Positions 2,543 through 16,731 of a stretch of DNA of 21,010 nucleotides are shown here, one piece after another. A program made the position numbers and the translations under genes. The stretch's first letter is position 1. Every line of letters starts with the position of its first letter. A model generated the notes under the pieces. It had not been told where the DNA came from, searched no databases, and saw only the letters and a list, made by a program, of their open reading frames with translations. Origin of the DNA: a virus; UHGV virus genome UHGV-1822439; one strand, 5' to 3'.

Positions 2543-2582
2543 CGCAATGACTCCATTATGTTAATTAACCTGGTAATTTTAC

Positions 2583-2623
2583 CATTTTGTGATCTGTGTT
2601 ACATTCCTGACCTATACAAAATG
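2583..2623. promoter_or_regulatory. Junction inverted-repeat element, site A
   Basis: CATTTTGTGATCTGTGT at 2583-2599 and TATACAAAATG at 2613-2623; TTTTGTGATCTGTGT is identical to site B (14768-14782). Lies between the divergent tail fiber (-) and lipoprotein (+) genes. Confidence 0.5.
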
Positions 2624-2701
2624 TATTTATTGATTTATATCAATGTTGAGAAAACGATGTTTATGGATACTACAACCGACGGAACAATGGAGGATAAGAC
2701 A

Positions 2702-2941
2702 ATGAAAGGCTTTAAAAATATCGCTATAGCTGCAATGGTCGCTGGTATGGTTGGTTGTGCTGATATGCCGAAACGTGAATGCACGGCAATTTATCAGGCT
2801 GGCGGTAATGAATATGCGGTTGCAGTCTTCGGTGTCGCGGATGTTGGCGGTCATAAAATGGTTAAGGCCGGGTATCCGTTTAACTTCCAATGGGTAAGCG
2901 TTGACCACTTCAAGAAAACGGATTGCCCGGAACTGAATTAA
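2702..2941 (+). CDS. Small lipoprotein (79 aa), antisense moron next to the tail fiber gene
   Basis: Perfect SD GGAGGA (2689-2694), 7 nt before ATG at 2702. N-terminus MKGFKNIAIAAMVAGMVG-C is a signal peptide with lipobox (MVGC); mature part ~60 aa with three further Cys. The ORF-track N-terminal extension from 2558 has no SD. Confidence 0.6.
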   Translation: MKGFKNIAIAAMVAGMVGCADMPKRECTAIYQAGGNEYAVAVFGVADVGGHKMVKAGYPFNFQWVSVDHFKKTDCPELN

Positions 2942-3537
2942 TCATAGGCGTCGGTTTTAATGGCGGTGATAGCGTTCCCGTGATTAATGTAACCGTAAAT
3001 CTGTTGCAAGCTACCAACCATCTTCCCGCGAATTCGTGTAGTGCTGCCGTTGTAGTATGCCTCTGTATATATTGTCGCAGAACCCATACCTACAACGGCC
3101 CCTAATATCTGAGGCACTACCGCATAAGATCCTGATAATGTCTGGTCGATATAAATTCCACCACTTGATCCGGCTGTCCCCACCGTAACAATGTCTGTCA
3201 ATATTCTTGATTCGTTTGTCAATACCAGTTCACCGGAAGCGTTCCATATAGCCATACCCCACTTCGGACGCGATTGCGGGAAGATACTGAATATATACGC
3301 GTAACCGTTTCCTGGTGGAATCACTATGGTAGACGATGAATTGCGATAGGCTACACCAGTAGCGGTATCGTCTGTGTTTTTTATGAATACCATTACAGGC
3401 TTCCCATTGGGGACGGCTATTGTTTGCTGTTGGCTTGAATTGAGAGCAACCCGTGAATAAAGGCACATAGGTGTCGAATCTGGAGTTACGAAAATATTGC
3501 CATTACTTAAACGTAAATAAGCGCCGAAAGTAGCCAT
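2938..3537 (-). CDS. Tail-associated hypothetical protein (199 aa), paralog of the upstream small gene
   Basis: ATG at 3537 directly abuts the upstream stop (TAAATG, 3540-3535). N-terminus MATFGAYLRLSNGN resembles MDTFGVATWDANGN of the upstream gene. Its 3' end converges on and overlaps the lipoprotein gene stop. Confidence 0.5.
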   Translation of the reverse strand: MATFGAYLRLSNGNIFVTPDSTPMCLYSRVALNSSQQQTIAVPNGKPVMVFIKNTDDTATGVAYRNSSSTIVIPPGNGYAYIFSIFPQSRPKWGMAIWNASGELVLTNESRILTDIVTVGTAGSSGGIYIDQTLSGSYAVVPQILGAVVGMGSATIYTEAYYNGSTTRIRGKMVGSLQQIYGYINHGNAITAIKTDAYD

Positions 3538-3849
3538 TTATGCGTTCTCCGTAAAAATAACCAGTTCACATTGCGATGCGGGCCATATATTAGCGCCCAC
3601 CGTATCCCCTGCTGAGGAAATGGAAACAGTACCGCCGGAAATACTGATCTTTCTACGCGTTGATGATGTTGTGCCATAATCAAGCGTCATGGCATAAGAT
3701 AATTTACATCCTGTAGGAACGGTAAAATTATATGTGCCTGACACTTGCCCGGAAGACAAGGAAATATAGCCAACCACGACGGATGGCTTGATGCCGTAGT
3801 TATTAGCGTTGCCGTTGGCGTCCCATGTTGCCACGCCGAAAGTATCCAT
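3538..3849 (-). CDS. Tail-associated hypothetical protein (103 aa)
   Basis: ORF 3538..3906 trimmed to ATG at 3849 (MDTFGVATWDANGNANNYG...), preceded by SD GGAGGTG; the longer ORF-track form would overlap the J stop and the post-J hairpin. Confidence 0.5.
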   Translation of the reverse strand: MDTFGVATWDANGNANNYGIKPSVVVGYISLSSGQVSGTYNFTVPTGCKLSYAMTLDYGTTSSTRRKISISGGTVSISSAGDTVGANIWPASQCELVIFTENA

Positions 3850-3860
3850 AGTTACACCTC

Positions 3861-3893
3861 CATAATAAAACTGAGGCCGAACAAGTCGGCCTC
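3861..3893 (-). terminator. Hairpin/attenuator immediately after J
   Basis: Stem GAGGCCGA (3873-3880) / TCGGCCTC (3886-3893), loop ACAAG; minus strand continues AGTTTTATTATGGAGG, i.e. U-rich tract then the SD of the next gene. Confidence 0.4.
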
Positions 3894-3899
3894 TTAATT

Positions 3900-6800
3900 C
3901 TACCATGATCCGGTAATTCGCCCAATCTGGACGCGTAACACGCCATTACCATCTTTTACTGAGATAGTTGTGTTCGTCCATTTCATTGCTCCTTCACCGC
4001 TTACTGATCCGTAGTTTTCGAATGTACCGGATTTATCAAGTTTCCAGCCTGTGCTGCCGGAAACATAGTTATTTGATTGGATGTAAGAACCTATTTTCGC
4101 GTTAGTGATTGATGCGTCCTTAATAAACGCTTCACGTACATACATTGCGCCGCCAGTGACATAGAAAGGCGTTGTATATGTGCCGTTTGCGGCGGTCATT
4201 AACACGAAGCGATCAACGAGGAAAATACACTGCGATTGGACATTAGTCCCGCTACCAGTAAGGCCGAGCGACATGCCGGTAGCATATTTAACGCCTCTGC
4301 TGTCTGTCGCGATCTTAATAGAGTATGATGCATCGACATTCCCCTTAAAGTCCGTTAACGCTTTCGATGTCGTCTCTATGGCTGTTGTGTTCCCGTCAAT
4401 AGTTACTTTTAACTGGTCAATTTTGGTTGATAATGCCTCGTCAGTCGTTGTCATGGCCTGTGACCATTCCGTGATACTTGAGTTTACATCGTCGAAAGAT
4501 GCCGATATTTGAACAAATTTTTCAGCACTTGATGCCTCGTGAGTTGCGAGCGCCGTTGATATATCTGTTATTTTTGCTGAAATGTTTTCATTAATATTGG
4601 CTTCAAGTGATGCTATAGCCTCCGCGCGGGCCTGGGTTTCGTCTGCTATTGCTGTGTCGATCCTTGCTATTTCCGCTTTTGTTTTTGTCTGGCCTTTCCT
4701 GTACTTCGCCTCAATAACGGTGCTCATCTTGCTTTGCGCTATTGAGTTGTTGATAAGTGCAATCGAGGCGTTTTGCAGACTTGCTTTTGCCTGATCTATT
4801 TCGTTGCTGTTTTTATCAACCTCATTTTCAACAAGACCAAGCTCCGCACTGATTCCTGATATTGCCTGAGCGCGGGCGCTTGATTCGTCAGCGATAGCTT
4901 GATCGAGACGAGAAACGCTCGCATCAGTTTTGTTTTCCAGGCTGCTGATACTGGCGTTAACGTTGCTTATAGCTTCCGTTCTCGCCTGCGTTTCGGTTGC
5001 GATTGCTTTGTCTACGCGGGCTATTTCTCCTTTGATGTTTGAGTCTATCGTATTTATTTCGGCTGTGATGGTTTCCAGTGATTCCGCTGTCGCTTTTTTC
5101 TCCTCTGCGATAACGTTGTCGATGCGGTCAATCTGTGCCTTTGTTTCGTTGCGACCTTTCTTATATTGAGCGGTAAGAGTAACCCGCGTGTTAGTTTGAG
5201 CAAGCGAGTTATTGATCAGAGCAAGCGAAGCGTTTTGTAAACTTGCTTTTGCCTGTGCCAGTTCGTTGTTAACGTTTTCGTTTGATACCTCTAATGAGTC
5301 TATTCTTACCTCATGTTTGCCTATTTCATCGGCGTTTTCTTCGACTTTTTTATAAAGGTCTTCGGTGTCTTTTTTAAGTGTATCTGTGTCAGCTTTAAGA
5401 TCCTCTGTAGCTATTTTAAGGTCTTCGGTAGCTCCTTCTACAATATCAGTGCGCTCACCAAGATCTTTAATGTCGCTAATCATCTCCTTGAATTGCTCTG
5501 ATTCCATTACATCCTTTGTAACGTAATCAGTGATTTCGTCAAAATCCTCTGTTGGCTTACCTGATGCCTCGACGAAATCAGACACACCAAAAGCATTACG
5601 AGTGCGCACATAAACGTAATAAGTATGGCCCGTATTCATGCCGCCGAACGTCCACTGATACCCGCGCCCGGTAAACTGTGCCGACGTGGTTATTTTTGCC
5701 GGATCTGTGATCTGATTTTCCCCTGCATAGTAGAATTCATATGACGTATCGGTAGTAAGCGTGGTTTTGCTTATCGGGTACACGGTCGCCTGAAATACGC
5801 CTGGAACCCAATTTACGCCAACTGGCGCGGCTGGAGCACCAATAACAAGATCAACAATGCTTTCAGCGCCTTTCATGCCAGTATCGTTTCTTCCGCGAAC
5901 GCCTAACGAATACGCGCCAGCGTCAATACCATAAAAATCATAACTGTATTTCGTTGTTTCGTAGCTTTTAACCACCGCACCATCAGTATTGTATATGCGG
6001 ATCTCGAATGTCATGCGATGCGTGGTTGTCTGTGTTTCCCATGTAGCTCGGCATTGAACTGTTTCAGATCCGATGTTTACCACTTTCAGGTTTTCAATGT
6101 TCGGGACACGGAAGTGATTAAGCGTGTCGTTGTTGATTTCAAATATCGCGCCTTCATCGACTACCGCTTGTTTGTTCGGGTCATGTTGCGCTGCTTCGAT
6201 GGTATACACGCTATTATTTTCGGTTTCGGCTACACTGGTGATCCGGCATAAAACGGGTTTTTCCGCTTCGGTGGATACAGCAAATACAGTACCGTTCCGA
6301 ATCCATGCCGGGGCCGCCGCTAGTGTGATTTCGTTTCCGTTTACACCAGTAATCTGATGTTTTTTAAATTTGCCGTCGCTGTCGAGTAAGCTGATGGTGT
6401 CGCCTGCTGTGATATAGTCGCTGTCAACCTTATCGACCGTTATCACGTTTCCATTGTTCGCCACGATACGCCCACCTAAACGCGCACCTGCGCGGTTATT
6501 GTCGAGGATTTCGACTATATCCCCTGGCGTAAAGTGAATCGCGTCACGTGCCATTTTAAACGTGAATTTTGACGGCTCGCGTTTTGCTGTTTCTATCAGC
6601 CATTTGCCCGCGCGGTACGCTTGCCCGCGTGACGTACAGCCGAACGCCTCCATCGTGGTTTCGTTGTAACCATCGCGGGCGATTAGCTCATCATCTGCTA
6701 CATACTCTTTTGACTGCTCCCACCCGTTTTCCGGGTCAGTCCAGGATACGATCACGGCGTTGTAGCATTCCGCACGGGCGATACTCGAACGAGTGAACGC

Positions 6801-9891: not shown

Positions 9892-9930
9892 CATTTTGTG
9901 ATATGCGTCACGCTAAATCACACCAAAATG
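9892..9930. promoter_or_regulatory. Junction inverted-repeat element, site C
   Basis: CATTTTGTGAT (9892-9902) and ATCACAccAAAATG (9917-9930) form an imperfect inverted repeat, 14 nt upstream of the L start on the minus strand and just before the plus-strand cassette. Confidence 0.5.
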
Positions 9931-9932
9931 GA

Positions 9933-9961
9933 TTGTTCATGGTTTTTACAATATGTATATT
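9933..9961 (+). promoter_or_regulatory. Candidate sigma70 promoter for the L/M-junction cassette
   Basis: TTGTTC (9933-9938), 17-nt spacer, TATATT (9956-9961). Weak -35; by eye only. Confidence 0.3.
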
Positions 9962-10007
9962 TTACTCAAACGAAGGGGAAGTTAACAAAATGGCGCGGAG
10001 GTGCGTT

Positions 10008-10196
10008 ATGACTGAAAAGCCATGGAAGTTGACGGTATTCATGACAGACGGTAGGGAAAAGGTTATCGCCCTGTATGACGACGAGGGGGAAGCATTGGTT
10101 GACGCGCTTTTACTTGCTGAGGATGACCGCCTTTTGGGATACCAGATCGAACCTGTCAAATATGAGGCTAACAAAAATGAAAAAATACAGTCTTGA
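10008..10196 (+). CDS. Small acidic protein (62 aa), first gene of the L/M-junction cassette
   Basis: SD GGAGG (9997-10001) 6 nt before ATG 10008. MTEKPWKLTVFMTDGREKVIALYDDEGEALVDALLLAEDD...PVKYEAN; paralogous to the N-terminus of the next gene. An alternative start at ATG 9990 is possible. Confidence 0.55.
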   Translation: MTEKPWKLTVFMTDGREKVIALYDDEGEALVDALLLAEDDRLLGYQIEPVKYEANKNEKIQS

Positions 10197-10524
10197 TGTG
10201 TGGTTAAGTGGTAGCAAGGAGTGTTTCGGATTATTTGATAGCGAAGAAGTAGCCCTGGAAGAAGGCAGGATTCTTGAATGTAGTTTAGGCCATCCAGTGA
10301 AATATGCTGCTAATCCGGTACAGATAGTTGATGAGGTGGAAGATATGAACCCGAAAGATATTAATGTTAACTTCAATGTTAATTTTGCAGACTCTATGGA
10401 TCAGTCTTGCCCTGGTGAAATACACGCAAAAGGTTTCCCGGCTGACGATCCAGAAGCAAAACGCGAATACGAAAAAGCTGCGAAAGACTTCTGCATGGAT
10501 AATCTTGCAGCATTCGATAAATAA
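10177..10524 (+). CDS. Acidic protein (115 aa), tandem paralog of the preceding gene with a C-terminal extension
   Basis: ATG 10177 overlaps the preceding gene by 20 nt. N-terminus SLDVWLSGSKECFGLFDSEEVAL...GHPVKYAAN aligns with ...LTVFMTDGREKVIALYDDEGEAL...GYQIEPVKYEAN; strongly acidic. A GTG at 10198 is an alternative start. Confidence 0.55.
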   Translation: MKKYSLDVWLSGSKECFGLFDSEEVALEEGRILECSLGHPVKYAANPVQIVDEVEDMNPKDINVNFNVNFADSMDQSCPGEIHAKGFPADDPEAKREYEKAAKDFCMDNLAAFDK

Positions 10525-10533
10525 GGGGGATAC

Positions 10534-10782
10534 ATGGGGCGGCGCAATCACGGCGATTATGTGTACACGCTGAAACAGGCCGCCCGCCTCGTTGGTTATC
10601 ATGAACACGAATTTATTGATTTGCTGATTGAGCGCGGGATACTGTACCAGGTCTGTTTAACGCTGTACCCGAAAGCTAAATACCTACAGGAAAAGTTATT
10701 TATCATCATGACGGATGAAAACCAGGTTAACCATTCATTCGTCACTGATAAGGGCGTTAATTATCTGCGTGATAACTTATAG
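10534..10782 (+). CDS. Small protein (82 aa), possible helix-turn-helix DNA-binding protein
   Basis: SD AAGGGGGA (10524-10530) before ATG 10534, 9 nt after the preceding stop. Segment TLKQAARLVGYHEHEFIDLLIERGIL has a helix-turn-helix-like pattern (by inspection only). Confidence 0.5.
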   Translation: MGRRNHGDYVYTLKQAARLVGYHEHEFIDLLIERGILYQVCLTLYPKAKYLQEKLFIIMTDENQVNHSFVTDKGVNYLRDNL

Positions 10783-11491: not shown

Positions 11492-11557
11492 GATTCCCCC
11501 TATAAGTTACATATTGCATACATCTTTACGCGCTTCTACGCGAAAAATGAGAAATTC

Positions 11558-11589
11558 ATCACAAGAATTATAACCAGTTTACAAAATGG
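11558..11589. promoter_or_regulatory. Junction repeat element, site D
   Basis: ATCACAAgAA (11558-11567) and TTTACAAAATGG (11578-11589): same half-site family as sites A-C, immediately upstream of the candidate promoter. Confidence 0.4.
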
Positions 11590-11590
11590 C

Positions 11591-11619
11591 TTCACATAAG
11601 GCGTGACAAGATGTATATA
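11591..11619 (+). promoter_or_regulatory. Candidate sigma70 promoter for the M/tape-measure-junction cassette
   Basis: TTCACA (11591-11596), 17-nt spacer, TATATA (11614-11619); about 40 nt upstream of the first SD. Confidence 0.45.
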
Positions 11620-11660: not shown

Positions 11661-11816
11661 ATGAAGCGTTATGTAGTGGTAATGCTGAACAACGCATTCG
11701 AACAGGTGGAAGTGGCGATAGTCAAAGGCTTTGATGACGCATTCAAATACGGTCAATTCATGATGAATGCGAAGGAAAACGAGTACCGTGATTTCTTCCT
11801 GAAAGTGGTCAACTAA
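11661..11816 (+). CDS. Small protein (51 aa), first gene of the M/tape-measure-junction cassette
   Basis: Strong SD AAAGGAGG (11648-11655), 5 nt before ATG 11661; MKRYVVVMLNNAFEQVEVAIVKGFDDAFKYGQFMMNAKENEYRDFFLKVVN. Below the ORF-track cutoff. Could be the partner (antitoxin-like) of the next gene. Confidence 0.5.
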   Translation: MKRYVVVMLNNAFEQVEVAIVKGFDDAFKYGQFMMNAKENEYRDFFLKVVN

Positions 11817-11834
11817 TGGATTGTGGGGTGTGTT

Positions 11835-12089
11835 ATGAAATTGGTGGCGATTGGTAAAAACCTGAAAGCACAGAAAAACGCACAGGACCGGATCATCAAG
11901 AAAGGAAAGCAATTGCTTGATGCTTTTCTTAAAAAAGAGGCCAACCCCAAAAAATTACGCGATGGCTACGGTTATAAATTTGACATCAACCCCGATTGGC
12001 GGTTATTCAGCGAAGATTTAAAGATGTGGTTAATTATTGACCACCTGGAATATAACAGGCACTGTGGGGTGAAAGGCGCTCACAAGTGA
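11835..12089 (+). CDS. Small basic protein (84 aa), candidate RelE/ParE-superfamily-like toxin
   Basis: ATG 11835, 18 nt after the upstream stop. MKLVAIGKNLKAQKNAQDRIIKKGKQLLDAFLKKEANPKKLRDGYGYKFDINPDWRLFSEDLKMWLIIDHLEYNRH. Pattern (basic N-terminal helix, NP..KL..G, D.R, C-terminal H/Y) loosely resembles RelE/YafQ/YoeB toxins; weak, from memory. Confidence 0.3.
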   Translation: MKLVAIGKNLKAQKNAQDRIIKKGKQLLDAFLKKEANPKKLRDGYGYKFDINPDWRLFSEDLKMWLIIDHLEYNRHCGVKGAHK

Positions 12090-12120
12090 CACGGATTTGA
12101 ATGTTGCGGAGGAAAACAAA

Positions 12121-12291
12121 ATGAAAAATCCGGCAAATAAAAGCAACGTAAAACGCATGGCATGGGTGCTAAAATATATGGATAGTAAAGGGGATACATA
12201 TACATGCCCATTTTTTAGGTGTACTGACGCGGTATTTGCCAGAAGTGTACACGGAGGGAAAATTGAGAGAGGATATACAAGATTTGAGTAA
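12121..12291 (+). CDS. Small basic protein (56 aa), hypothetical
   Basis: SD GGAGG (12108-12112) 8 nt before ATG 12121; MKNPANKSNVKRMAWVLKYMDSKGDTYTCPFFRCTDAVFARSVHGGKIERGYTRFE. Confidence 0.45.
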   Translation: MKNPANKSNVKRMAWVLKYMDSKGDTYTCPFFRCTDAVFARSVHGGKIERGYTRFE

Positions 12292-12329
12292 ATTTATTCA
12301 CGAAATCAATAACATGATGAAGGTTTATA

Positions 12330-12509
12330 ATGATTATTCATGATACTGAAGAATGCAGAAGGATTGATCTTAGTATTGAAGATGACGGAAGATTATGGAT
12401 CGTTAGCGACTGCGAGATGATTGTAATAGACAAAAAGCAAGCTGACGAACTGATAAGAGCATTGCAGCTTTATGCAAACGGCGAATTTAAAAATGATGAA
12501 ATTGAATAA
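12330..12509 (+). CDS. Small acidic protein (59 aa), hypothetical
   Basis: SD GAAGG 8 nt before ATG 12330; MIIHDTEECRRIDLSIEDDGRLWIVSDCEMIVIDKKQADELIRALQLYANGEFKNDEIE; stop 12507-12509, immediately followed by a terminator. Confidence 0.45.
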   Translation: MIIHDTEECRRIDLSIEDDGRLWIVSDCEMIVIDKKQADELIRALQLYANGEFKNDEIE

Positions 12510-12513
12510 AATA

Positions 12514-12540
12514 GCCCCGGCATTGTGCCGGGGTTTTGTT
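12514..12540. terminator. Intrinsic terminator, bidirectional (closes the cassette; also follows the tape measure gene on the minus strand)
   Basis: Stem CCCCGGCA (12515-12522) / TGCCGGGG (12526-12533), loop TTG, then TTTTGTTTATTT on plus; on minus the hairpin is followed by CTATTTTATTC. Confidence 0.75.
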
Positions 12541-14753
12541 TATTTCCTGCGAGGTTGCAGCATTCCGCCTGGTCTGGATGATTCGCGGTGCATCAGGCCC
12601 ATGCAGATCCTTTCCATGTCCTGTTGCAGCTTTTTGGCATCCTCATCGCTCCATCCATTTTGTGGGTAAACACTAATCGGCGCGTTTATGCTAACGCTAC
12701 CACCACCAGCACCACCAATGTCGCGATTTGGTATTACCCTGCCGTTGTCACCCGGGATCATGTACTGACTCCCATTGCTCGCCTGAAAGATCTCCGGTTT
12801 ACCGTGTTCGCCGACCTTATAGAGGCTGCCCGCAGCCACCGCACCGCCGTTATAACGAGCGCCAGCCAGGCCAAGCGCTTTTGCTCCAGCCACACCAGTG
12901 GCAAGACTCGTACCCCCCACGGTCGCCGCGCCGCCCATCGTGGCTACGTTTGCCAGGTATGCAGGAGTAGCCCACGCAGATCCCAAAGCGGTAGCCTCTG
13001 CCAATGCTTTAGCTGTTGCGGCTGCGCTGGCGGCCTCGCCTATCAATTGCTGCTTGACCCATTCAGCCCCCATTTGAACAAGCGTACCGATAACGGAGGA
13101 AAGGATTGTATTGCCAATGTTAGCCAGCGCCTGCTGCCAGCTTTGAGTGCCGTTAACCAGGCCCACAAGCGCATTTGTTGCAGATCCGCCCATTGCATCA
13201 ACGGTATCGCCCAACAGTTTGTAGCTCATTGACTGTGCTTTATATCGCTCCCACTCAAGGGTGAGCATTTCCTGTGCGTGCGCTCTTTCTTGTTCCCTCA
13301 TATATTGCTCAGTAGCGCCAAGATCTTCCAGCATTTGCTTACGAACGGTCCATTCATTTTGCGCCTGCTGTATTGGGTCTAGTTCACCGCGCTTCTGATC
13401 CAGTGATGGAATCATTTTGTCCCATTTTTCTTGCAGCCTATTGATCGGGTCGTTAATTTCCGCCAGAGTTTCGCGCAATTCATCACCAATTCCCTTCATT
13501 GCGCCTTTGTATTCAAGCATGGTTATTTTCCCGGCTTTAAAGGCTGCATCTATGGCTTTTTGTGATTCAAGCGCTTTGCGCATTGCTGCCGAATCTTCGT
13601 TATATGCATCTGAAATGCGCACACCCTGTTCCGCAAGGCGCTCGGCTTCTGATTTGCCGGTTTTTTTACCTTTGCCTTTCTTACCCTTACCACCAGGTTG
13701 AGGCTTAAACGTTATGCGACTTACACCAGCTTGCCCCGTGGGGAGAGTGGAAACAAATGGCTGTTCTCCGCCATCAAACCATCCAACCTGTTTCGCTTGA
13801 GCGCGGAACAAACTAAGCCCAGGCACTATACCCTCAAACGCCCCAGCCAATAGCCACAATTTATCAGTTAATGACGTGCTATCGCTCGCCAGGGACTTAA
13901 ACCAACCAGATAACATCTGGACTTCACTAGAAACAGCCTGTATACCAGTAACTACCAAATCAGACACTCCAAGCGTTTGGTTTAGCGTGTCAATTAACAG
14001 ATCGAAGTTGTTTTTTAGCTCGTTAAATGCCTGATCTGTTGTTGTTGGCAGTTTTGCGAAGTCCTTCTCTATGTCTTCTGCGCCAGCAAGAATTGAATTG
14101 GTAACATCCTCGGCGGTGAGCTTACCATCAAGCATTCTTGCGCGAAGTTCACCCATCGAGATCCCCATTTGTTTGGCGACGCGTCGCCATACTTCGGGCA
14201 TGTTTTCAAGCACAGAGTTGTATTCTTCCGCGCGAACAATGCCACCCGTCAGGGACTGCCCTAACTGGCGAAGTGCGTTTGACATTTCATCTGATGAGCT
14301 ACCTCCGATACGGCCTATTTTCTGAAGCGAGTCGGTAAGCTGCAATACCTGCTGACTGGTCGCGCTGGTATCCTGTAGGCTGGCTTTTAGGCTTTCCCAC
14401 AGCTTCCCGGTGCTTTGAACACTCATCCCTGTGCGATTCGATATCTGAACAATCCCGTCAAAATTCGATTTTGCGTCAGCAATGCCGCTTGATAGTCGTG
14501 TTACCCTGGCGCGTAGCAGATTTACGTTATCTGCGATCTCCAGGAATTTTTTTGCAGCCATGACCATCATTCCAATGTTCACGGCTTTGGATAAATTACT
14601 TATCGTGGTATTAAGTGACTGCACTGATTTATCGGTGCGTTTAGCGCCTTGCTCGATTTTATCAAACGAGTCCTCCGCCTTGCGTTGAGCTACTAGTAAC
14701 CGCTCGGTTTTTGCGTCAACGGTATACTCAATCGTGCCCACATTTGTTGTCAT
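12540..14753 (-). CDS. Tail length tape measure protein (737 aa)
   Basis: Large ORF between the chaperone and M; alpha-helical, Ala/Gln/Leu-rich with Gly-rich and Lys-rich segments (KGKKGKGKK); SD GGAG before ATG 14753. Confidence 0.85.
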   Translation of the reverse strand: MTTNVGTIEYTVDAKTERLLVAQRKAEDSFDKIEQGAKRTDKSVQSLNTTISNLSKAVNIGMMVMAAKKFLEIADNVNLLRARVTRLSSGIADAKSNFDGIVQISNRTGMSVQSTGKLWESLKASLQDTSATSQQVLQLTDSLQKIGRIGGSSSDEMSNALRQLGQSLTGGIVRAEEYNSVLENMPEVWRRVAKQMGISMGELRARMLDGKLTAEDVTNSILAGAEDIEKDFAKLPTTTDQAFNELKNNFDLLIDTLNQTLGVSDLVVTGIQAVSSEVQMLSGWFKSLASDSTSLTDKLWLLAGAFEGIVPGLSLFRAQAKQVGWFDGGEQPFVSTLPTGQAGVSRITFKPQPGGKGKKGKGKKTGKSEAERLAEQGVRISDAYNEDSAAMRKALESQKAIDAAFKAGKITMLEYKGAMKGIGDELRETLAEINDPINRLQEKWDKMIPSLDQKRGELDPIQQAQNEWTVRKQMLEDLGATEQYMREQERAHAQEMLTLEWERYKAQSMSYKLLGDTVDAMGGSATNALVGLVNGTQSWQQALANIGNTILSSVIGTLVQMGAEWVKQQLIGEAASAAATAKALAEATALGSAWATPAYLANVATMGGAATVGGTSLATGVAGAKALGLAGARYNGGAVAAGSLYKVGEHGKPEIFQASNGSQYMIPGDNGRVIPNRDIGGAGGGSVSINAPISVYPQNGWSDEDAKKLQQDMERICMGLMHRESSRPGGMLQPRRK

Positions 14754-14766
14754 GATTGTTACTCCA

Positions 14767-14830
14767 CTTTTGTGATCTGTGTATCTATTTTATACAAAAT
14801 GTCTTTACTATAACGACTCCATTTTGTATA
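14767..14830. promoter_or_regulatory. Junction inverted-repeat element, site B
   Basis: CTTTTGTGATCTGTGT (14767-14782), TATACAAAATG (14791-14801), and its exact inverted copy CATTTTGTATA (14820-14830). Starts 14 nt upstream of the tape measure start and overlaps the candidate plus-strand promoter. Confidence 0.55.
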
Positions 14831-14832
14831 AA
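14804..14832 (+). promoter_or_regulatory. Candidate sigma70 promoter for the secreted-protein moron
   Basis: TTTACT (14804-14809), 17-nt spacer, TATAAA (14827-14832); followed by a purine-rich leader (14833-14909). Confidence 0.4.
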
Positions 14833-14909
14833 GAGACTAAAGGAAAGGGATAGAGCAAAGGGGTTTGAAAGGACCGGATAAACCGGAGGAAGCAAAAGAG
14901 GATAAGAAA

Positions 14910-14999
14910 ATGAAAAACGTAAACTATCGTCCCAACGAACATGAACGCTATGCGGACTTCATAGAAGAAATGTTAAAAGCACTTAAAAACAAAAATTAA
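14910..14999 (+). CDS. Tiny ORF (29 aa), possible leader peptide or small protein
   Basis: SD AAGAGGA about 7 nt before ATG 14910; MKNVNYRPNEHERYADFIEEMLKALKNKN; stop 12 nt before the next start. Confidence 0.3.
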   Translation: MKNVNYRPNEHERYADFIEEMLKALKNKN

Positions 15000-15011
15000 T
15001 CGAGGCGGGTT

Positions 15012-15509
15012 ATGAAACGGCTAGTAAAAGTCGCGGTAGCTGCGGTCATGGCAATATTCGCGGTCAATGCAAATGCAAGTAATGAAGTCAGCAAGATGTG
15101 CGACGCTATTTATCCAGCCTACGAAAAAGCATATACAATGGCAAATGTAAACTTTTTTTCAATTGGTAGGCACGGCGTTAACTGGGAGTATTTCATCTTA
15201 AATAAAGATAGCAGGACCAAAAAAGGTGACGCTGAAATGATAAAAGCGCACGGTGAAAGTTTCGCTTTCGTGATGGCTGCTGCTGAAAACAAACAAAATG
15301 ATAATGAATTTAAAAACTTTGTCGCTGGACTTGCCATCATGGCTGCTGAACGGGCGATAAAAGATCACGACAATAACGCTTATGCCGCTGCCGACGGGAT
15401 GGCATTAGATAGGGTAAGAATTGACTTCAAAAACATGTGCGTCAAAGAAGGCGCTAACATGTATAAAAAAGTAATAGATAAACACCACGAATATTATATA
15501 GGTTATTAA
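15012..15509 (+). CDS. Secreted/periplasmic protein of unknown function (165 aa), moron
   Basis: SD GAGG 6 nt before ATG 15012; signal peptide MKRLVKVAVAAVMAIFAVNANA with Ala-x-Ala cleavage site; two Cys in the mature part; Ala/Lys/Asn-rich, likely helical. Confidence 0.6.
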   Translation: MKRLVKVAVAAVMAIFAVNANASNEVSKMCDAIYPAYEKAYTMANVNFFSIGRHGVNWEYFILNKDSRTKKGDAEMIKAHGESFAFVMAAAENKQNDNEFKNFVAGLAIMAAERAIKDHDNNAYAAADGMALDRVRIDFKNMCVKEGANMYKKVIDKHHEYYIGY

Positions 15510-15514
15510 AAAAA

Positions 15515-15539
15515 GCCCGGATCTACCGGGCTTTTTCTT
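15515..15539. terminator. Intrinsic terminator, bidirectional
   Basis: Stem GCCCGG (15515-15520) / CCGGGC (15526-15531), loop ATCTA, flanked by AAAAAA and TTTTTCTT. The chaperone stop codon (15523-15525) lies in the loop. Confidence 0.8.
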
Positions 15540-16200
15540 GCTCGCGATTTTTCATTCTTTCCAGTACCTCCATAGCCTCCCTCATTCCATCGTCATAAGC
15601 CTTTTTGTCAAGCAATACATTTGGTCGTTTTTGTTTGTTTCTTGCTTCTTGCGGCATTTTGGCGCGTACTGCGGCCCTATATCCGGTCATTGTCATGCCC
15701 CATGCTTCTGATTCAGATAACCCCAGGTGGGCAACGGCAGAATAAACGAAATCAAGTACATCAAATGTCGGCTTGTACTCACCTTCCTGGATCTCGCTTG
15801 TATTTTCTTCCGGCCCGTCACCGATTAAACCGTGGTACATGCAATGCTGCGCCAGCGTGATAACGTCACTGGTAGGCATCAGTCCTGGTCTTAGTCGTAA
15901 CTTGCCGGAAGGAGTAAACCTACATTCGCCTAATAGCGTGCCTATTTCGTCGTCTGAGCAACATTTCAGGATGTGCATGGACGTTTGCACCATTTCACCA
16001 TAACACCGCGCCATAATGCGATTGCGAAGGTCTGGATCCGCTGGCAATCGTGATGGATATTTGCCACCGTGTATGGTTGCGAAGTATTCGACCAGTTCGC
16101 TGTCACTGCCGATTTTAGCCATTGCAGCGAAGCAGGGATTAAACACGTACCGCCTGCCGTCTACCACCGCCGCAAATTGTCCCGTTCGAACATGGATCAT
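15523..16200 (-). CDS. Tail assembly chaperone (G/T-like), 225 aa
   Basis: Assigned by position between tail tube and tape measure. ORF-track start 16209 is a GTG inside the SD AAGGTGA; ATG at 16200 (MIHVRTGQ...) is better placed. Single continuous ORF, no second-frame product seen. Confidence 0.45.
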   Translation of the reverse strand: MIHVRTGQFAAVVDGRRYVFNPCFAAMAKIGSDSELVEYFATIHGGKYPSRLPADPDLRNRIMARCYGEMVQTSMHILKCCSDDEIGTLLGECRFTPSGKLRLRPGLMPTSDVITLAQHCMYHGLIGDGPEENTSEIQEGEYKPTFDVLDFVYSAVAHLGLSESEAWGMTMTGYRAAVRAKMPQEARNKQKRPNVLLDKKAYDDGMREAMEVLERMKNREQEKAR

Positions 16201-16212
16201 AGCTGTCACCTT

Positions 16213-16254: not shown

Positions 16255-16731
16255 TTATGCTGCTGGGATGTCGCCAACCGTCACCTTGCCAGCACTTGAA
16301 CACTCAATGGACCAGGTGGAAACGTCGTCGTTAGGGTCTTCTTCTTTAAAGGAAGTGCAAAGAAACGGACCTTCAGTCACATCAGCCGGGGAAACAATTT
16401 TAAGCCAAACATATGGTTGCGATCCGGTTGTTTCGCCTGGGTTAATAACGTGGCGTTTAAGTGCCTTCTGATTATGAATTTCTTCAGTACGGGATACGCC
16501 GTCACCTGAGAAAGAAACAGATTTGTAAGTGACAAGTGATTCTTTGGTGTAGTCTGCTGATTTATCAGCGGTGGCGTCTGCGGTTTCCCATTCTACGGAA
16601 AGCGTTTTGCCGCGCATCATGCCTAACGCTTTATAAGAGCCGTCTTCAGGTTTCGCGTTAGGACAAGCGATAGCGTAGAATACAGCAACGTCGCGGCCTA
16701 AAAACGCGCCTTTTTCGCAAGTCTGAGACAT
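16255..16731 (-). CDS. Major tail (tube) protein (158 aa)
   Basis: Position upstream of chaperone and tape measure; size and beta-rich composition typical of small siphovirus tube proteins; followed by attenuator hairpin. Confidence 0.6.
   Translation of the reverse strand: MSQTCEKGAFLGRDVAVFYAIACPNAKPEDGSYKALGMMRGKTLSVEWETADATADKSADYTKESLVTYKSVSFSGDGVSRTEEIHNQKALKRHVINPGETTGSQPYVWLKIVSPADVTEGPFLCTSFKEEDPNDDVSTWSIECSSAGKVTVGDIPAA

Follow-up and report, generated by a model that had tools for sequence, protein, structure and literature searches.

We focused on a small transcription unit in the viral genome UHGV-1822439 (a stretch of 21,010 nucleotides, analyzed as a whole and referred to here as the window), whose main gene is an open reading frame (ORF) for a 165-amino-acid (aa) protein, termed ORF165. 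The unit lies on the plus strand in a 772-bp gap (window 14754-15540) and is antisense to the minus-strand tail genes on either side; we refer to this position as the slot. The original prediction, made from the sequence alone, had described it as a secreted-protein moron in a position typical of lysogenic conversion. The slot and the genes that border it contain the following features:

12540-14753, minus strand: tape measure protein gene (Pfam TMP_3, E = 6.6e-52; PHROG tape measure families), the left border of the slot
14769-14782, plus strand: TTTGTGATCTGTGT box, resembling a CRP half-site (TGTGA)
14789-14801 and 14820-14832: arms of a perfect 13-nt inverted repeat with an 18-nt spacer, around the promoter candidate
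14804-14809 (-35) and 14827-14832 (-10), plus strand: putative sigma-70 promoter TTTACT-17-TATAAA, read from the sequence
14833-14909, plus strand: purine-rich leader of 77 nt, 82% A+G
14910-14999, plus strand: 29-aa ORF, MKNVNYRPNEHERYADFIEEMLKALKNKN, with Shine-Dalgarno sequence AGAGGA and a stop 12 nt before the start of the 165-aa ORF
15012-15509, plus strand: ORF165, a 165-aa putative exported protein (signal peptide, 15012-15077; mature part, 143 aa)
15510-15539: intrinsic terminator hairpin with A-tract and T-tract flanks (stem AAAAAGCCCGG / CCGGGCTTTTT and loop ATCTA, 15510-15536)
15523-16209, minus strand: DUF6246 gene in the tail-assembly-chaperone position (Pfam PF19759, E = 2.7e-56)
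16255-16731, minus strand: tube gene

The ORF does lie where it had been placed, antisense between two tail genes (15012-15509, plus strand), whereas the name of chaperone given to the right-hand neighbor is purely positional, referring to its place between the tube and tape measure genes, as the tail-assembly-chaperone Pfam family matches it at E = 0.11 only. The GC content is 0.389 in the gap and 0.402 in ORF165, versus 0.504, 0.493 and 0.478 in the tape measure, DUF6246 and tube genes, and at third codon positions it is 0.40 versus 0.49. In a distant relative (L061), a DUF6246-like ORF (2995-3618) abuts an 842-aa tape-measure-like ORF (3618-6146). The unit thus shows the marks by which Juhala and Hendrix recognized morons (PMC3594210), namely, extra DNA between genes that are adjacent in another phage, a deviating composition (39% GC versus 49 to 50%) and a terminator of its own, and in these respects, which can be read from the sequence, the moron reading held up. 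The window is 100% identical to the prophage adjoining zntB in Escherichia coli M15 and, by its sequence, is an mEpimmI-type prophage of that strain, i.e., a temperate coliphage. Its relatives are the mEp phages, including mEp515, mEp010 and mEp021, and MagusPhagus. The mEpimmI group was described in 2025 as Nus-dependent, non-lambdoid phages that reportedly equal lambdoid phages in frequency in a human fecal sample collection, a description in which the slot is not discussed (PMC11893012).

ORF165 carries a signal peptide as judged by rule, i.e., by a positive n-region, an h-region of 10 to 15 hydrophobic residues and small residues at positions -3 and -1. MKRLVK is followed by VAVAAVMAIFAV (grand average of hydropathicity [GRAVY], 2.9) and then by NANA ahead of a serine, so that all three regions expected for Sec and signal peptidase I are present, with cleavage after ANA as originally predicted, and the pattern is kept in the relatives of ORF165. 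The mature part has a mass of 16.3 kDa and an isoelectric point of 6.5 and is hydrophilic (GRAVY, -0.48); we infer that the product is a Sec-exported, soluble periplasmic protein. Six ORF165 clusters, each of them from E. coli, came out of a search of 5.8 billion clustered proteins. When 1.84 billion representatives were searched exhaustively with a profile, one more cluster was added, and there were no ORF165 relatives beyond two among these representatives. In total, the family comprises only eight clusters, none of them outside E. coli. The relatives range in identity from 98% to about 50%, with one more distant member, and share 68 invariant alignment columns, among them those of Cys30 and Cys143 as well as the motifs GLAIMAAER and DRVRIDFK. 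Conservation of the frame in related prophages, on which the original prediction had staked its case, was found in copies of 93 to 98% and of about 50% identity as well as in the more distant relative; overall, the frame persists to identities as low as about 35 to 50%. All relatives whose context was examined (P0006, P0007 and L005) lie in the same slot, antisense between the DUF6246 and tape measure genes, and the slots of ORF165 relatives adjoin three tape measure types of 737, 782 and 1,051 aa. The ratio of nonsynonymous to synonymous substitution rates (dN/dS) between ORF165 and the 94.5%-identical L005 copy is 0.42. We consider ORF165 to be a real gene that represents an orphan family. 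Eight of the nine amino acid differences from the L005 copy cluster in residues 72 to 95 (window 15225-15296), within one predicted helix, which could reflect either a recombination tract or local diversifying selection.

No match to ORF165 was found in Pfam, PHROGs or NCBIfam, its profile retrieved nothing at E ≤ 10 from the sequences of the PDB, and tblastn against 50,697 phage records and 72,556 plasmids was likewise negative. An AlphaFold2 model, built from a seven-sequence alignment, is a helical bundle with four long helices and one short helix (mean predicted local distance difference test score [pLDDT], 73; predicted template modeling score, 0.72), with low confidence for the signal peptide (residues 1 to 20) and for residues 48 to 62. 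A fold search with this model gave no match. In the periplasm, Cys30 and Cys143 probably form a disulfide.

We surveyed 59 viral contigs encoding a DUF6246 relative for the distance between this gene and the tape measure gene. In all 48 close loci, the two are 646 to 1,278 bp apart, with intact plus-strand ORFs in between. Classified by the first ORF in the gap, the cargos of the slot fall into families C1, C2, C3, C4, C5, C6, C7 and C13, with at least six unrelated families of mature parts. Six of these families are as follows:

C1, 17 loci: 203- to 219-aa lipoprotein with a VasI domain (PF11319, E = 1.4e-15), usually followed by a second small gene
C2, 15 loci: 137- to 139-aa protein
C4, 7 loci: membrane protein of about 100 aa
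C6, 6 loci: protein of about 117 aa
C7, 2 loci: the 165-aa protein (ORF165)
C13, 1 locus: 245-aa lipoprotein

RefSeq names the C1 cargo TagO. Comparison of the mature parts by hhalign gave a probability below 1% for every pair of families, and we therefore rejected the idea that the cargos are diverged homologs. The sequence around the start codon behaves differently. From -20 to +21, a stretch that covers the ribosome site and the first codons (ATGAAACGGTTAGCAAAAG.., encoding MKRLAK..), the families are 59 to 98% identical to each other, and identity reaches up to 96% over the rest of the signal peptide but drops to 20 to 43% in the mature region. The clearest case is a C6 locus (L028) compared with a C2 locus (L021), with identities of 98%, 87% and 43% in the start region, the rest of the signal peptide and the mature region, respectively. 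This drop places the left recombination junction inside the signal-peptide coding sequence. Signal peptides, lipoboxes or transmembrane helices are found in six of the seven multimember families and in the single-member family C13. As we read these comparisons, the slot is allelic, combining a conserved control region, signal peptide and terminator with unrelated mature proteins. The PADLOC defense profiles matched neither ORF165 nor the 29-aa ORF nor seven other slot cargos. We also considered whether the promoter module is mobile to other phage types, but the E. coli genome matches inspected all represent the same slot. Likewise, neither the exclusion lipoprotein Lpp of mEp021 nor Ipe is a slot gene, since they are located elsewhere (gp81 after J and gp29 in the early region, respectively).

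The arms of the inverted repeat are 100% complementary, and only two other inverted repeats in the 21-kb window have arms of at least 11 nt lying within 40 nt of each other. The putative promoter is kept in 40 related loci as TTTACT or TTCACT together with TATAAA or TATAAG, and across these loci the arms are nearly unchanged while the spacer varies. Among 26 distinct related sequences, the arms, the TGTGAT box and the -10 element are almost invariant, while the 18-nt spacer, the leader downstream and the 6 nt that follow TGTGAT are variable. By eye, a leftward sigma-70 candidate is mirrored in the inverted repeat, with a good -10 and a poor -35. In the slot of a 50%-identical relative (L063, approximately 3910-3950), both arms carry a symmetric double change (ACAAAACG / CGTTTTGT), which is compatible with paired protein half-sites or with a hairpin; in the L019-type lineage only the right arm is changed.

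The leader and the small ORF that follows it had both been noted in the original prediction, and both bear closer inspection. In purine content, the 82% of 14833-14909 ranks 11th of 20,934 windows of the same size. A small hairpin, CCGG-ATAAA-CCGG, lies within the leader at 14874-14886, its CCGG stems being conserved and its loop variable, while the leader as a whole folds no better than shuffled sequences (z = +0.9). A search of the leader and the terminator with Rfam gave only subthreshold terminator look-alikes. Control by CsrA through the seven GGA motifs of the leader was considered and set aside, as their count is near the expectation from base composition (about 4 by our estimate). In three slots (L018, L036 and L051), the leader has an additional purine-rich insertion of ~93 nt ahead of the small ORF.

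The 29-aa ORF was found in 32 of 51 gaps scanned, irrespective of the cargo type. Of its variable sites, 16 fall at third codon positions versus 5 at first and 2 at second positions, and one in-frame 3-nt indel is tolerated, suggesting that it behaves as a translated small gene. It is annotated in mEp515, matches no known family and was not seen outside mEpimmI phages. Given that the loci without it have their cargo ~128 nt from the tape measure start, it is an optional module.

We observed that sequence elements of the slot recur in the window. The 14-mer TTTGTGATCTGTGT is also found upstream of two other plus-strand morons (2586 and 9895), and the 8-mer ACAAAATG, which is present in each arm of the inverted repeat, occurs 12 times in the window versus 1.6 times expected (window 2583-2623, 9892-9992, 11581-11588, 12116-12123 and 14794-14827). 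Most copies are in divergent control regions upstream of plus-strand morons, eight of the 12 being in moron control regions, and where a -35 element can be assigned by eye, the 8-mer ends 2 bases before it; some copies are merely start-codon contexts. In mEp021 there are 17 copies versus 4.7 expected, one of which immediately precedes the -35 of a near-consensus early promoter adjacent to the repressor gene. The layout of box, -35 and -10 seen in the slot recurs at window 11581-11619 and at this putative early promoter of mEp021. Those copies that have the form CATTTTGTGAT can also be read as CRP half-sites, and TGTGA-N6-TCACA with one mismatch is found upstream of three other morons (2588-2603, 9897-9912 and 11548-11563). 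The corresponding site of the slot (14771-14786) reads TGTGA-TCTGTG-TATCT, with 3 mismatches in its second half, for which the relatives mostly have TCTCT. Relative to inferred start sites, these CRP-like sites would be centered at about -61.5 in the slot and -71.5 at the moron at 11661, in agreement with class I activation positions. The ACAAAATG and TGTGAT boxes might act as UP-like elements or might be bound by CRP, by the phage repressor or by some other factor. The boxes TTTGTGATCTGTGT and TATACAAAATG are common to the slot and the region upstream of cor in the window. The annotated cor gene (127 aa, window 2558-2941) starts upstream of both, which puts the boxes inside the annotated coding region; the true start of cor is probably further downstream, near 2657.

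The terminator had been described as symmetric, with the stop codon of the chaperone gene in its loop, and the analysis bears this out. The hairpin folds well on both strands (plus, -17 kcal/mol and z = -2.9; minus, -19.7 kcal/mol and z = -4.1), and the stop codon TAG of the DUF6246 gene (15523-15525) is located in the loop, the last codons (K-A-R-stop) making up one arm and the loop. On the side read by the late strand, seven U residues follow. The stop lies within the loop throughout the phage group, the GCCCGG stem is conserved behind every cargo type, and the annotations of mEp515 and mEp021 list the equivalent hairpin as a terminator. The A-tract is found only with the ORF165 cargo (in the window and L005), as other cargos (L002, L004, L006 and others) bring a different left flank. 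A bidirectional hairpin is therefore confined to this phage and L005; in most relatives, which have no A-tract, the hairpin should terminate the moron strand only. A regulator of late genes of the Q type is annotated in mEp021, which would explain how terminators inside the late operon are tolerated. We rejected minus-strand coding in the gap, e.g., as a frameshift extension of the chaperone, given that the DUF6246 stop is fixed in the loop and the sequence beyond it differs for each cargo.

Several known systems resemble the slot in part. Gene 15 of phage HK97, the first element to be named a moron, has the same genome position as the ORF165 slot, flanked by the tail chaperone and tape measure genes; it is equipped with a promoter and terminator of its own, differs in composition from its neighbors and encodes an envelope product, which mediates superinfection exclusion by blocking DNA entry (PMC3594210). 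The closest parallel in the way of working, though not by homology, is found in the erp loci of Borrelia cp32 elements, which are allelic and in which the promoter/operator DNA and the leader peptide are conserved while the remainder of the ORF has many independent origins and is shuffled by recombination (PMC10016077). The coliphage slot shows the same allelism of position, upstream DNA and signal peptide with unrelated mature parts. It differs from erp, whose products are spirochete surface lipoproteins that bind host factors, in having an E. coli host, in lying inside a tail operon, in its periplasmic, lipoprotein or membrane cargos and in the often present additional 29-aa ORF. Within the phage group itself, the Cor and Lpp proteins of lambdoid and mEpimmI phages are, like the slot cargos, envelope-targeted products of tail-region morons, and superinfection exclusion has been shown experimentally for the lipoproteins Lpp021 and Lpp010 of mEpimmI phages (PMC11893012). 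However, they are encoded in another moron island, after the J gene (gp81 in mEp021), and are lipoproteins of ~70 to 80 aa with no similarity to ORF165. The counterparts in sequenced mEpimmI phages are gp63 of mEp021, gp83 of mEp515 and CDS0039 of MagusPhagus, which occupy the identical slot with the same leader and small ORF before them and the same terminator behind, but have mature proteins unrelated to ORF165 (families C2 and C6) and are annotated as hypothetical.

On balance, we lean toward regarding the slot as holding an independently transcribed, exported and exchangeable moron cargo of an mEpimmI prophage. In a lysogen, the sigma-70 RNA polymerase of the host would transcribe the cassette, and the precursor would be exported by Sec and cleaved after ANA, after which the mature protein of ~16 kDa would fold in the periplasm as a soluble helical bundle, probably locked by the disulfide Cys30-Cys143. 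The terminator would keep transcripts from entering the tail and head genes in the antisense direction. During lytic growth, convergent late transcription, antiterminated by Q, would override the cassette, with the Q-type regulator reading through the hairpin on the late strand in the middle of the operon. New cargo would arrive via homologous recombination between the two conserved flanks, the left junction falling in the codons of the signal peptide.

A number of observations weigh against this picture. The original prediction had embedded a promoter candidate in the inverted repeat; that candidate is present and kept in relatives, but TTTACT-17-TATAAA escaped a simple consensus promoter scan, since the usual T at the end of the -10 is missing. 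A repressor might bind at the inverted repeat that overlies the promoter, in which case the gene would not be constitutively on in lysogens. The family is rare, with ORF165 at a query coverage of at least 80% in 1 of 5,426 complete E. coli genomes, and the model of the protein is only of moderate quality (pLDDT of 73, with values below 50 at residues 48 to 62). The parallel with HK97 is also limited, as its gp15 belongs to the YebO family and is a small protein of the inner membrane, whereas ORF165 encodes a putatively soluble, Sec-exported protein of 143 aa on the opposite strand; with no Pfam or PHROG match and a hydrophilic mature part, ORF165 shares with gp15 the genome position only.

As for function, we tentatively place ORF165 among envelope protective factors of the lysogen, with superinfection exclusion as the leading candidate, acting while the tail tip and tape measure protein of an incoming phage pass through the periplasm. 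This assignment, made by analogy, is favored because a hypervariable, envelope-directed locus suggests an arms race and because the envelope morons tested in this group exclude phages. A small periplasmic protein with two cysteines in a hypervariable locus could also confer immunity or protection, not from phages but from periplasmically active toxins, for instance colicins or type VI secretion effectors. In favor of this, the cargo seen most often in place of ORF165 is a lipoprotein with a relationship to the type VI secretion accessory protein VasI (PF11319). We think such an immunity role unlikely, as ORF165 has no sequence or fold match to any immunity family, there is no effector gene nearby and the family is found only in this phage slot. 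Equally, morons encode varied fitness functions (PMC3594210), and the candidate CRP-like box and common promoter architecture hint at control by host physiology, so that ORF165 might contribute to host fitness or colonization apart from defense, e.g., by buffering envelope stress or by binding a periplasmic ligand or metal. This, too, appears improbable, given that there is no family or fold support and that a hypervariable allelic slot with unrelated cargos suits an arms race better than housekeeping.

Other explanations fit the data less well than envelope protection does. A role in the lytic cycle of the phage, as a periplasmic helper of lysis or DNA injection rather than in lysogenic conversion, would agree with the embedding in the tail module and with an inverted repeat that could be an operator keeping the gene off in lysogens, but the gene is antisense to the late operon and unrelated proteins replace it in the viable phages mEp021, mEp515 and MagusPhagus. 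It is therefore not needed for growth, and we regard such a role as very doubtful. That ORF165 is a chance or decaying ORF without a functional product is hardly credible: the family is rare and dN/dS moderately high (0.42), but the reading frame persists in relatives of about 50% identity, 68 alignment columns are invariant, a ribosome site is present in the proper place, a frame of 165 codons in DNA of 39% GC is very improbable by chance and the slot always holds an intact exported ORF. The original prediction had proposed lysozyme-inhibitor-like folds for comparison, and a periplasmic, prophage-encoded inhibitor has a precedent in Spackle of phage T4, a helical periplasmic inhibitor of the phage tail lysozyme. 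Nevertheless, the model of ORF165 is all-helical, structure prediction and fold search matched nothing, and ORF165 does not belong to the families or folds of the periplasmic lysozyme inhibitors Ivy, PliC/MliC or PliG, which makes this function extremely unlikely.

A bolder reading, to which we give only a modest chance, treats the slot as an "export adaptor" locus maintained by selection. Behind a fixed module of promoter, leader and signal peptide and ahead of a fixed terminator, mEpimmI phages would exchange arbitrary periplasmic or lipoprotein domains through homologous recombination within the signal-peptide codons, forming a hypervariable envelope shield, the coliphage equivalent of the erp system of Borrelia. 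In that case, ORF165 would be the founding member of a new periplasmic anti-injection family, and the ACAAAATG and TGTGAT boxes would tie the morons of the tail region into one regulon. At the level of sequence, what is new here is the allelic slot with a common promoter and signal peptide and unrelated mature parts, the moron itself being of a well-known kind. ORF165 represents an uncharacterized orphan family confined to one slot of the mEpimmI group. If it does block phages or toxins, it would add a new soluble periplasmic mechanism to prophage-encoded protection, and the slot would offer at least six further candidates behind one control region; without a phenotype, ORF165 remains an ordinary moron. 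The conserved flanks make the locus easy to spot in genomes and usable as a natural cassette for expression and export.

Elsewhere in the window, RefSeq annotates an IS903B transposase gene within the tail-fiber region (1478-2446), and for this reason the prophage may be defective. Two more antisense moron islands lie between tail genes, at 10008-10782 and 11661-12509. The latter contains an ORF (11835-12089) with a ParE-like toxin domain (E = 5.9e-12), and the ORF at 10534-10782 in the former is a short KilAC antirepressor fragment.

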